This document shows positions 766-1,812 of a stretch of DNA of 62,322 nt, piece by piece. The DNA is from a virus (taxonomy: Duplodnaviria; Caudoviricetes). The stretch spans positions 1 through 62,322 of IMG/VR virus record IMGVR_UViG_3300047467_000008; one strand, 5' to 3'. Within the stretch, counting starts at the first letter, position 1, and each line of letters starts with the position of its first letter. Under the pieces are notes generated by a model. It searched no databases. It was given only the letters and a program-made list of their open reading frames with translations, and was not told where the DNA came from. A program made the translations under genes and the position numbers.

Positions 766-1812
766 GTGGCTGGTGCAAGATGGACGGCGTTCGCCGTCAT
801 CGGAACGATCGTCTTCGGGGCCGCGGGGTGCGGCGACGAGGAGAGAAGCGGTGGCACGACGGTCGCGATCGTGACAGCCGGCGCACGCGACGACCCGGAC
901 TGGTCGACGCAGACGGCGAACGGCGCCGTGAAGGCGGCGAGAAAGCTCCGGCTCGGCTCGGAGGTCGTCGAGCCGGCGGACGACGCCGCGGCCAGAAGAG
1001 CGCTCGCCCGGCTGGCGCCGGACGCGCAGATCCTGATCGCGCCGTACGCGGGCGATCGCGCCGCGGCCACGAGAGTCGCCGCGAGCCAAGAGGTGCCGAC
1101 GCTCCTCTGGGGCGACCCGGACGGGCTGCGTTCCGACCTGGTCGGCGACGCCGAGGTCGCCTGGGAGCAGGGAGCCTGGGTCGCCGGTTGGATGGCGGCG
1201 CGGGCGAGCCGCGAAAGAAGCGTCGGGATAGTGCTCTGCGACGACGGCACCGCGGAGATGCCCGACCGCTTCGAAATCGCCGCGGCGTACGTCGCGGGCG
1301 CCCGCGCGCAGGAGCCACGGGCGAAGGCCGCCTACGTGATATGCGGCGCCGACGAGGCCAGCGCCGCGCTGGCGACGCGGGAACTCGTCAGCAGAGGGAC
1401 GCAGATGATCCTCGGCGCCTGCGGTCCGAGCGTCTCGGGCGTGGTGAAGGGGATCGAGAAGGTCATCAAGCGCACCGAGACGGGCGAGACGCAGCTCGTC
1501 GGCCTCGTCGGCGAGAAGACGGAGCTCAACAGAGAAAACATCATGCTGACCTCGGTCATGGTCAACCCCGCCGTCGCCTTCGAGCAGGCGCTCCGCGACA
1601 TCAGAGCCGAGCGGTTCGGCACGCGGGTCTACACGCTCGACCTGGAGAACGGAGGCATCACCCTGCTGCAAACCGGCCGCACGCCGCAGGACGCCTACGA
1701 AATGGCGCTCGAGGCCGGGGAGCAGTTCGCGGACGACGCGATCGAGCTGCCCAAGGCGACCAACGAAGAGGAGCTCGACGCGGTGATCGCCGAAAGCGGT
1801 CGCGACCGCTGA
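766..1812 (+). CDS. BMP-family (PnrA-like) ABC substrate-binding lipoprotein
   Basis: GTG start after GGAGAGGAG; signal peptide with lipobox FGAAG-C; C-terminal LTSVMVN...DI...FG...YTLDLENGGI typical of BMP family. Confidence 0.7.
   Translation: MAGARWTAFAVIGTIVFGAAGCGDEERSGGTTVAIVTAGARDDPDWSTQTANGAVKAARKLRLGSEVVEPADDAAARRALARLAPDAQILIAPYAGDRAAATRVAASQEVPTLLWGDPDGLRSDLVGDAEVAWEQGAWVAGWMAARASRERSVGIVLCDDGTAEMPDRFEIAAAYVAGARAQEPRAKAAYVICGADEASAALATRELVSRGTQMILGACGPSVSGVVKGIEKVIKRTETGETQLVGLVGEKTELNRENIMLTSVMVNPAVAFEQALRDIRAERFGTRVYTLDLENGGITLLQTGRTPQDAYEMALEAGEQFADDAIELPKATNEEELDAVIAESGRDR

Follow-up and report, generated by a model that had tools for sequence, protein, structure and literature searches.

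A codon dialect of AGA, GAA and AUA in a Bmp-family lipoprotein gene and in other exported-protein families of Conexibacter-like actinobacteria

We have analysed a stretch of 62,322 bases, the whole of IMG/VR virus record IMGVR_UViG_3300047467_000008 (hereafter the window), with attention to a lipoprotein gene near its left end in which rare synonymous codons, above all AGA for arginine, are strongly concentrated. Both ends of the window (1-8.6 kb and 59-62 kb) show a guanine-plus-cytosine (GC) content of 71-78% and the middle shows 64-73%; a tRNA-Thr(CGT) gene at 8651-8723 adjoins the start of this lower-GC, prophage-like region. The gene in question lies in the left high-GC flank, and its main parts are as follows.

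766..1812, plus strand: Bmp/PnrA-family lipoprotein gene, the dialect carrier, recognised by its PF02608 match, codon counts and homologues
766..831, plus strand: signal peptide with lipobox (residues 1-22, ...FGAAGC), read from the translation by eye

The frame contains 348 codons plus the stop, with a GC content at third codon positions (GC3) of 0.89. Its protein matches Pfam family PF02608 over residues 32-301 (E 5.3e-10; 39.2 bits, cut-off 24.1), and a profile built from 19 homologues matches solved Bmp-family lipoproteins with a best E of 1.1e-16. The N-terminus reads M/V-AGARW-hydrophobic-AAGC, that is, a charged n-region followed by a hydrophobic stretch, and Cys22 and Gly23 are invariant in 19/19 aligned homologues. 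A galE-like fragment lies upstream, and SDR, tmk and holB-like genes lie downstream. Since ABC-transporter permease or ATPase genes have not been found beside it and the gene is solitary, its transport function should be taken as putative. The distance from the gene to the downstream tRNA-Thr(CGT) is ~7-8 kb both in the window and in the three related loci (L001-L003), so the synteny is conserved; two homologues are labelled Conexibacter sp. by their source, and one related locus comes from a Conexibacter metagenome-assembled genome (MAG). We regard the window gene as an orphan Bmp-family lipoprotein gene belonging to a high-GC actinobacterium similar to Conexibacter. An Rfam search of positions 560-1900 gave no match at E up to 1, so we reject a riboswitch or other known RNA within the gene or ahead of it. 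No sigma-70-like sites have been seen at the gene, and the one terminator-like site inside it, on the minus strand, is at chance level.

A sequence-only reading of the window had counted ten AGA codons in this gene, with no AGG or CGA, and almost no AGA in the other host genes. Our counts agree with it down to each coordinate. The 28 Arg codons are CGT 1, CGC 10, CGA 0, CGG 7, AGA 10 and AGG 0, with AGA in frame at 778, 844, 940, 994, 997, 1072, 1216, 1393, 1531 and 1603. For comparison we have used the 12 other genes of the two high-GC flanks (4008 codons), as called by a home-made gene caller (codon log-odds trained on the sequence, with start sites likewise home-made) which left tmk (2749-3477) uncalled and uncounted. 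Of their 413 Arg codons, only 2 are AGA (in the galE fragment and in a membrane gene at 58706-59518, once each), so that the contrast with 10/28 in the Bmp gene is highly significant (Fisher exact p = 1.2e-11). A few other A-ending codons had been mentioned by that reading as a caveat; actually, they belong to the signal, as GAA accounts for 7/30 Glu codons against 11/267 in the other host genes (p = 8e-4) and ATA for 2/16 Ile codons against 1/136 (p = 0.03). AAA, CTA and TTA are absent from the gene, and the skew of AGA to its N-terminal part is weak (Mann-Whitney p 0.07).

Such purine-rich AGA/GAA strings could in principle be a signal at the nucleic-acid level, serving as binding sites or as unstructured stretches of mRNA or DNA. 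AGA is raised out of frame too in the Bmp gene (10.5 per kb in frame 2 and 2.9 in frame 3, versus 3.7 and 0.7 in the other host genes), and a string AAC-AGA-GAA-AAC within it is conserved. However, the AGA trinucleotide density relative to the other host genes is ~48-fold in frame and only ~3-4-fold out of frame, the latter coming partly from neighbouring GAG, GAA and AGA codons. In addition, other A-ending codons are not raised, the Rfam search found nothing even at E up to 1, and the sites are scattered through the genes. We consider a signal of this type most improbable.

DNA of homologues has been obtained from three genomes, reached through an alignment of 12 proteins, and from 61 relatives of one of these, 20 of which matched at E up to 1e-30; no relative came from a single-protein scan of genome contigs, nor from scans of metagenome and viral contigs. 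The three closest homologues carry 11 AGA (plus 2 AGG) among 23 Arg codons, 8 (plus 1 AGG) among 13, and 7 among 24, and almost all of the more distant ones carry 9-17 AGA. Among the 22 loci with at least 20 flanking Arg codons, the AGA share of the Bmp homologue exceeds that of its flanking genes in 21 (Wilcoxon p 1e-6), and the pooled counts are 244/593 versus 50/1653 Arg codons. The Bmp clades are only 31-38% identical to each other, and the AGA richness is stable across them. The AGA cluster is inherited by the gene family across at least 20 genomes and is no local accident. Chance is ruled out as its cause by the Fisher tests together with this conservation, and a general low GC3 or foreign AT-rich DNA as the sole cause is ruled out by the high GC3 of the Bmp gene and its conserved synteny beside tRNA-Thr.

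The dialect codons of the window gene, together with two CGN-type positions, are listed below with their alignment columns (CGN, any of the four CG-starting Arg codons).

778..780, plus strand: AGA, Arg5, in the charged n-region of the signal peptide; column R in 16/16 ungapped, codons AGA 2, AGG 5, CGN 7
844..846, plus strand: AGA, Arg27; column R 1, K 8, other 8
940..942, plus strand: AGA, Arg59; column R 11, K 6, codons AGA 9, AGG 2, CGN 0, Lys 4
994..999, plus strand: AGA-AGA, Arg77-Arg78; column 77 R 8, K 7, column 78 variable
1072..1074, plus strand: AGA, Arg103; variable column, CGC in one orthologue
1213..1218, plus strand: GAA-AGA, Glu150-Arg151; Arg151 is AGA in 17/22 homologues, CGN 2, Lys 0
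1228..1230, plus strand: ATA, Ile155; a second ATA at 1339-1341
1273..1275, plus strand: GAA, Glu170; further in-frame GAA at 1381, 1699, 1765 and 1792
1303..1305, plus strand: CGC, Arg180 (GAR motif), a CGN-type column; CGN 21/22, AGA 1
1393..1395, plus strand: AGA, Arg210; column codons AGA 2, AGG 2, CGN 6
1528..1539, plus strand: AAC-AGA-GAA-AAC (Asn-Arg256-Glu257-Asn), conserved at the nucleotide level
1603..1605, plus strand: AGA, Arg280, the most conserved AGA column; AGA 19/22, AGG 0, CGN 0, Lys 0
1678-1680, plus strand: Arg305, a CGN-type column; CGN 19, AGA 0, Lys 1

In the 22 Bmp homologues, some Arg columns are of AGA type (Arg280, 151 and 256) and others of CGN type (Arg180 and 305). 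The column of Arg256, for example, holds AGA in 14/22, with CGN 1, AGG 1 and Lys 3; next to it, Glu257 is coded by GAA in 17/17 sequences having Glu, and the triplet AGA-GAA-AAC is kept in 11 sequences. The Glu columns are likewise either of GAA type (GAA:GAG 17:0, 16:1 and 13:0) or of GAG type (0:18, 0:12 and 0:11).

The same codons have then been counted over MAG-grade samples of three relatives, namely ~800-840 kb of G001, 400 kb of G002 and 1.2 Mb of G013 (400 kb for the dialect census). G001 is the nearest genome with DNA, and its Bmp homologue is 57% identical to the window protein. In its 682 called genes (203,961 codons), AGA accounts for 278 of 17,310 Arg codons, i.e., 1.36 per 1000 codons, and is far from evenly spread: 593 genes have none (468 expected under an even spread), and seven genes have at least five (0.46 expected). 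More than half of the 278, namely 160, fall in just six genes: four for BNR_4 proteins (28-44 each), one for the Bmp homologue and one for a c-type cytochrome. The codon shares of these six genes and of all others in G001 are as follows.

AGA share of Arg: six genes 54%, all others 0.7%
GAA share of Glu: six genes 67%, all others 6.6%
ATA share of Ile: six genes 25%, all others 0.9%
CTA share of Leu: six genes 5.9%, all others 0.2%
AAA share of Lys: six genes 3.1%, all others 3.1%

In the six genes, the rise does not exceed ~2.4-fold for most of the A-ending codons and for any T-ending one, which likewise speaks against low GC3 or AT-rich DNA as the sole cause: AGG, ACA, TCA, CCA, GTA and CGA are not raised, and GCA, GGA and CAA are up about twofold. 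In G001, G002 and G013 alike, the top GAA genes are the top AGA genes. Overall, the dialect consists of AGA (Arg), GAA (Glu), AUA (Ile) and some CUA (Leu), while the remaining codons are G/C-ending like those of the genome. In G001, no gene for a ribosomal protein, EF-Tu or EF-G has more than one AGA, GAA is scarce in these genes, and CGT and GGT are preferred; therefore this is not the usual bias of highly expressed genes, and high-expression codon bias is ruled out.

The families that use the dialect are BNR_4, Bmp, cytochrome c, PQQ propeller, SURNod19 and a Peripla_BP_6 lipoprotein, together with several genes without family. In composition, the dialect proteins of G001 favour N, T, S, Y, W and I at the expense of A, P and L. 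Of all genes surveyed, those that carry the dialect most strongly are the secreted BNR_4 (PF15892) paralogues of G001, three in tandem at L021:8219-15678 and a fourth at L018:2464-4317, each of which also has 29-42 GAA. A secreted family of ~255 residues without a Pfam match (...AEFPNF(S/T)(D/G)CPT...) is dialect-rich as well (L138:18346-19116 in G002; L154:9648-10409 in G013). At L153:17004-18959 of G013, a gene of ~160 residues, without a Pfam match but preceded by a hydrophobic stretch, stands in three near-identical tandem copies, in which GAA makes up 15-16/17 of Glu and ATA 6-7/12 of Ile, with CTA 7.

Within the window itself, prophage virion genes share the dialect more weakly. The virion module, on the minus strand at ~24.4-47.2 kb (24419-47131), has AGA at 97/531 of its Arg codons and GAA at 59/381 of its Glu codons, and the remaining phage genes have AGA at 37/709. 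The AGA-rich virion genes include those at 38537-38923 (8/10), 43401-44084 (11/26) and 28447-32370 (24/117), with AGG near zero; in the virion genes GAA is mildly raised and ATA is not. Although AGA is frequent in the virion genes, no tRNA-Arg gene has been found in the 62-kb window; the prophage does include a gene for tRNA-Met(CAT) (47682-47753, minus strand).

Does the dialect follow protein location, as the sequence-only reading had proposed from one exported host gene? We have applied a crude home-made export classifier (charged n-region, hydrophobic core, AxA or lipobox, and a count of hydrophobic segments) to G001. It predicts 81 of the 682 genes to be exported, 18 of them with at least one AGA and 63 with none. 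The excess over cytoplasmic genes is modest (odds ratio 2.1, p 0.02; the cytoplasmic class includes mis-started dialect genes). On the other hand, among the strong-dialect genes of G001, G002 and G013, 15/19 have a signal peptide or lipobox recognisable by eye, either at the called start or a short way before it. Location dependence is thus supported in part, but a general rule that exported proteins use AGA is ruled out by the 63/81 without any. That is, export is close to necessary for the dialect and far from sufficient.

The main idea of the sequence-only reading was that AGA may be read as something other than ordinary Arg. Under this explanation, a tRNA(UCU) without A20 would be charged with a non-Arg amino acid, so that AGA would mean Lys or another residue, at every site or ambiguously. 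When the ten AGA columns of the window protein are compared over 18 homologues with its eighteen CGN columns, R outnumbers K in both (R 95, K 29, other 51, i.e., 95/175; and R 147, K 24, other 130, i.e., 147/301), which gives no support to recoding. In the DNA, AGA swaps with CGN at conserved Arg columns (123 and 183 of a four-way alignment), Arg151 is CGC in two low-AGA paralogues, and the signal-peptide column of Arg5 mixes AGA, AGG and CGN. AGA also swaps with AAG for Lys in the Bmp homologues. The separateness of AGA-type and CGN-type Arg columns described above would suit a recoded AGA.

G013, an AGA-rich relative in which AGA use is three times higher, has been chosen for testing whether AGA means Lys. 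Genome-wide it has AGA 1372 versus AGG 456, a ratio of ~3:1 that is odd for synonyms at a GC3 of ~90% and to that extent favours recoding. In 106 best-hit pairs with G001/G002 (at least 55% identity), the 123 G013 AGA codons align to Lys 60, CGN 22, AGA 3, AGG 2 and other 36; that is, more often to Lys than to Arg (60 versus 27). In the same pairs, G013 CGN codons align to CGN in 1873/2243 and G013 Lys codons to Lys in 666/764. Seen from the other side, G001/G002 AGA codons align to CGN 7, AGA 3, Lys 1 and other 3, and the seven matches to CGN, like the 22 of G013, show AGA at Arg positions conserved as CGN. Many of the G013 AGA sites in these pairs lie in ribosomal proteins, EF-Tu, EF-G and RpoC. 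As a related observation, many AAG lysines of ribosomal proteins, EF-Tu, EF-G, RpoA and RpoC in G001 (L116, L117) are replaced by AGA in G013 (L160, L161). The proteins concerned are 88-98% identical to those of G001, and AAG to AGA is a two-base change that leaves the GC content unchanged. G013 rpoC has AGA at 14/105 Arg codons, and AGA is also present in the ribosomal protein genes of this genome; GC pressure alone gives no explanation for its preference of AGA over AGG.

The P-loop offers a direct answer. The 1.2-Mb sample of G013 (1115 called genes with 335,343 codons) contains 42 lysines in the strict Walker-A pattern GxxGxGK[ST], 19 of them with an ABC signature downstream, and all 42 are AAG, none AGA. 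If AGA were Lys, it would make up 19.6% of the Lys codons of G013, and 0/42 would then have P = 1e-4. Five further Walker-A-like matches have CGN and no signature and are probably chance matches, and a looser P-loop pattern gave a single AGA, outside any P-loop domain. On this test we reject the assignment of AGA to Lys. Inference of AGA/AGG as Lys is the commonest error of Codetta, met in 567 high-GC species, and is ascribed to Lys-to-Arg substitution via AGR in high-GC genomes (Shulgina and Eddy 2021, PMC8629427, in the part of that paper available to us). The Lys-like alignment of AGA here is this published artefact, and AGA sits mostly at positions that tolerate both Lys and Arg.

The tRNA genes leave a somewhat less simple picture. 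G001 has 53 of them, with Arg anticodons ACG, CCG (two genes), UCG, CCU and UCU (two genes). One tRNA(UCU) is canonical and GC-rich, with A20, C35, U36 and G73, and the other has C20 and a weak D stem (L026:11770-11843); G002 carries the same pair, its C20 copy being at L068. The canonical A20 form is present in G001, G002 and seven other genomes. A U20 form has been observed in 14 relatives (L079-L093), its G1-U72 pair being kept by compensatory acceptor-stem changes, and in these 14 genomes a query for the canonical UCU form matched only CCU or CCG tRNAs. All of the A20-less copies keep C35 and U36. As far as the available text of Giege and Eriani (2023, PMC9976931) goes, A20 is the main bacterial Arg identity base, with exceptions known in eukaryotes, and C35/U36 are read only by arginyl-tRNA synthetase. 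An origin of the U20 form from tRNA-Lys is not supported, as its best global identity is to tRNA-Gly and tRNA-Asp (0.79-0.80, uninformative). We have also observed a short-variable-arm tRNA of 73-74 bases with anticodon UAA, conserved in 10 genomes (L026:3080-3153 in G001; L071-L078; L094) and similar to the atypical tRNA(UCU) in its acceptor stem and T arm; G001 has a normal long-arm tRNA-Leu(UAA) besides. The atypical tRNAs of G001 are not prophage cargo, for the surrounding 20 kb shows a GC of 0.67-0.75 per kb and ordinary genes.

Considering the identity elements, the A20-less copies, lying beside a canonical one in two genomes and without any that we could find in 14, speak for recoding, while the canonical tRNA(UCU) of the two nearest genomes, the retained C35/U36, the eukaryotic exceptions to A20, the swaps with CGN and the P-loop lysines all argue against it. 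We are highly confident that AGA is plain Arg and regard a recoded or ambiguous AGA as very unlikely; the A20-less and short-arm tRNAs keep only a small door open for ambiguous decoding.

If AGA is ordinary Arg, what keeps it in place? One explanation is neutral: Lys drifts to AGR-coded Arg at tolerant sites in fast-evolving, once Lys-rich exported and virion proteins, AGA is then trapped because the intermediates CGA and AGG are rare, and GAA and AUA are leftovers of a lower-GC origin. The Lys-like Codetta error has been explained in this manner (PMC8629427, in the part available). Several of our observations fit as well, including the G013 AGA codons that align to Lys rather than to CGN (60 vs 22 of 123), the higher proportion of K at the AGA columns of the window protein than at its CGN columns (29/175 vs 24/301 ungapped cells), and the amino acid composition of the dialect proteins.

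A further comparison concerns which synonymous codon is kept at each position. We have expressed it as kappa, the agreement beyond chance in synonymous codon over columns with the same amino acid in both sequences. For the four G001 paralogues of BNR_4 (32-55% identity), the ordered Arg pairs are AGA-AGA 110, AGA-CGN 10 and CGN-CGN 180, and the ordered Glu pairs are GAA-GAA 96, GAG-GAG 62 and GAA-GAG 6. The corresponding kappa is 0.85 for Glu, 0.54 for Ile, 0.41 for Arg and 0.36 for Ser, and lies between -0.07 and 0.25 for the other 12 defined amino acids; Leu, Gln, Asp, Tyr, His and the 4-fold families are near chance. Between the Bmp clades it is 0.46 for Glu, 0.44 for Ser and 0.37 for Arg, with the remainder from -0.13 to 0.27 (the pair counts of this analysis are pseudo-replicated), and 43 ordinary best-hit pairs give 0.28 for Glu. 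The two codon blocks of Ser (TCN and AGY) cannot interconvert silently, and the similar agreement of Arg is what the neutral explanation would lead one to expect. GAA and GAG, however, are one silent transition apart, and the genome bias favours that transition, so their separation needs codon-level selection or some unnamed gene-specific process; they interchange in only 6/85 conserved-Glu BNR_4 pairs. As GAA/GAG and AUA/AUC are fixed by position while ordinary synonymous sites are randomised, the pattern points to selection on codon identity.

Other observations speak against drift, too. AAA is fully 'ameliorated' in the six G001 genes (3.1% in both classes) while GAA still stands at 67%, the trait is stable in 21/22 loci across clades as divergent as those above, and under GC pressure AAG should give rise to AGG, whereas in most dialect genes, as in G013, AGA is by far the commoner of the two. 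On these grounds a neutral by-product appears rather unlikely to us, and the dialect has probably been maintained by selection, as judged from the alignments.

How the dialect may act is less certain. For every one of its codons, G001 has a separate tRNA (UCU, UUC, one of the three CAU genes, and UAG). We suggest that AGA is ordinary Arg within a small class of exported-protein genes having their own dialect, which would be paced, gated or insulated by low-demand tRNAs, and we hold this reading as a whole with middling confidence, neither better nor worse than an even chance. In such a scheme, the dialect codons would be read by their own low-demand tRNAs (UCU, UUC, lysidine-CAU and UAG), apart from those serving the bulk proteome, whose demand on them would be tiny. 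Synthesis of the dialect proteins would then be paced at defined positions, or would depend on, or be insulated by, a separate tRNA pool. This might hold nascent chains in an export-competent state; alternatively, on the idea, found in the literature, that low-demand isoacceptors stay charged in starvation, scavenging and respiratory exoproteins might still be translated when the main Arg and Glu tRNAs are drained. The specific statement that the dialect acts by pacing or insulating translation through separate tRNAs, which rests on codon and tRNA gene content, we make tentatively, at an even chance or slightly below.

A comparison with bldA is instructive here. In Streptomyces, the UUA codon and its tRNA define an 'expression space', the targets of which usually have one or few TTA and are often regulators. 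A conditional tRNA(UCU), perhaps with other U34 tRNAs, might likewise act as an on/off gate for the exported genes, and the phage might time its virion genes in the same way; the sequence-only reading had offered such a tRNA-gated codon as its second possibility. As with bldA, a very rare codon of a high-GC actinobacterium, with its own tRNA, is concentrated in a gene class of extracellular biology. AGA stands at 1.36 per 1000 codons in G001 and at 2/413 Arg codons in the other host genes of the window, and tRNA(UCU) genes are present in the relatives. A gate would fit the AGA share of only 0.7% of Arg outside the six G001 genes and its concentration in a functional class, the second, atypical tRNA(UCU) gene of G001, and the excess of AGA in the virion module (97/531 against 37/709 in the other phage genes). 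For Actinomycetota, a regulatory role of AGA as a rare codon has also been put forward (PMC13072593, in its available part).

The differences are considerable, however. Unlike in bldA, the codons here are four (AGA, GAA, AUA and CUA), occur by tens per gene at conserved positions (10 AGA in Bmp, 28-44 in BNR_4), and lie in structural exported proteins such as binding proteins, propellers and cytochromes and not in regulators. UUA itself is almost unused in G001, with 9 in 203,961 codons. Ribosomal protein genes of G001 do contain isolated AGA codons, which means that the tRNA has to be present in growing cells, and rpoC and ribosomal protein genes of G013 use AGA as well. The idea of a specialised codon survives in a widened sense: we do find a conserved, selected, codon-specific trait that fits a translational role, but it differs from bldA/TTA, given 10-44 codons per gene, several codons and structural genes. 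We think a true gate quite unlikely and have rated it below pacing because of the ribosomal AGA codons and because AAA, CAA, GGA and UUA have their own tRNAs yet are used differently.

A bolder reading may be considered, namely that position-fixed AGA, GAA, AUA and CUA form a second decoding channel that marks an exported regulon and is copied by phage virion genes, and that unusual tRNAs (the A20-less tRNA(UCU) paralogues and the short-arm tRNA(UAA)) would pace or switch the synthesis. In its boldest form, AGA may be ambiguous, read as Arg or another residue, at tolerant positions. We regard the second channel as an unlikely, though not negligible, reading.

Other known systems resemble the dialect in part. 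In yeast, AGA/GAA-marked transcripts depend on the U34 tRNA modification by Trm9. It has also been described that rare synonymous codons can be conserved by position and that secretory proteins can contain rare codons; as there, the same alignment positions are kept here and secreted proteins are involved, but here, in place of clusters of mixed rare codons, a fixed set of four codons takes half or more of a gene's Arg and Glu and extends beyond the signal peptide. In Pseudomonas aeruginosa, AGA-biased translation control through GidA/MnmG affects secreted and virulence proteins, according to the part of PMC10945773 available to us. The likeness with GidA/MnmG and Trm9 is that AGA, and in yeast GAA too, marks a set of transcripts. 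The difference is that AAA and UUA, which belong to the same modification pathway, are not enriched here, and that AUA and CUA lie outside that pathway. As in AGR-for-Lys substitution, AGA aligns with Lys of the relatives at ~72% GC, but that genome-wide, neutral account predicts no concentration in gene families, no strong excess of AGA over AGG, no co-enrichment of GAA and AUA, and no fixed GAA versus GAG. We also find tRNA(UCU) without A20, whereas 'almost all' keep it in the accessible part of PMC8629427.

Several observations weigh against our preferred reading of a selected dialect with its own tRNAs, and should be kept in mind. The genome-wide dialect data and the tRNA data come from relatives, the nearest of which has a Bmp protein only 57% identical to that of the window, and both the gene calls and the export classifier are crude heuristics. 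Export alone is no explanation, since most of the predicted exported genes of G001 lack the dialect. AAA, CAA, GGA and UUA also have their own U34 tRNAs in G001, yet they are unenriched or raised about twofold, so a simple rule of a separate tRNA pool fails to predict the pattern. MnmG (TIGR00136) has been found over the cut-off in 0/5 draft genomes (G001, G002, G003, G007 and G013), in a search that found it over the cut-off in 9/14 control genomes. AGA and GAA enrichment are uncoupled in two of the homologues (L059 and L062, with AGA 12 and GAA 0-1). Shared ancestry explains a part of the Bmp column pattern, for the identity at 4-fold sites is 0.68 within the large clade versus 0.49 by chance, i.e., synonymous sites are unsaturated there, and it is 0.57 between clades; only 8 Glu and 16 Arg columns are comparable between the clades. 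Finally, since the Arg kappa is like that of Ser, a mutational codon-block barrier might suffice for AGA alone.

As for novelty, it has been suggested that AGA is rare, unevenly placed and regulatory in Actinomycetota (Rudenko et al. 2026, PMC13072593). The available part of that paper covers 11 genera, with Thermoleophilia unmentioned in it, and reports 5'-terminal enrichment and enrichment in biosynthetic clusters of genes with at least one AGA, whereas we find gene families saturated with AGA plus GAA and AUA. Our survey of the literature, mostly at the level of search results, found no conserved multi-codon dialect in exported-protein families, nor position-fixed GAA/GAG, in any bacterial lineage. 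Rare and uneven AGA in Actinomycetota and Lys-like AGR are thus already known, and the conserved dialect with position-fixed GAA/GAG appears, from this survey, to be new.

The result retires the recoding reading of AGA, and it carries a caution for code-inference tools, in that Lys-like AGA is no reassignment here, despite A20-less tRNA(UCU) genes in the lineage. More broadly, in a few gene families the use of GAA, AGA and AUA is ten to eighty times that in the remaining genome, at positions that have long been fixed. If functional, the dialect would be a clean natural case of synonymous codons carrying information. It would also allow an old question to be tested in a bacterium whose signal is extreme and easy to read, namely whether rare codons serve to pace export and folding or instead set apart an 'expression space' of their own.

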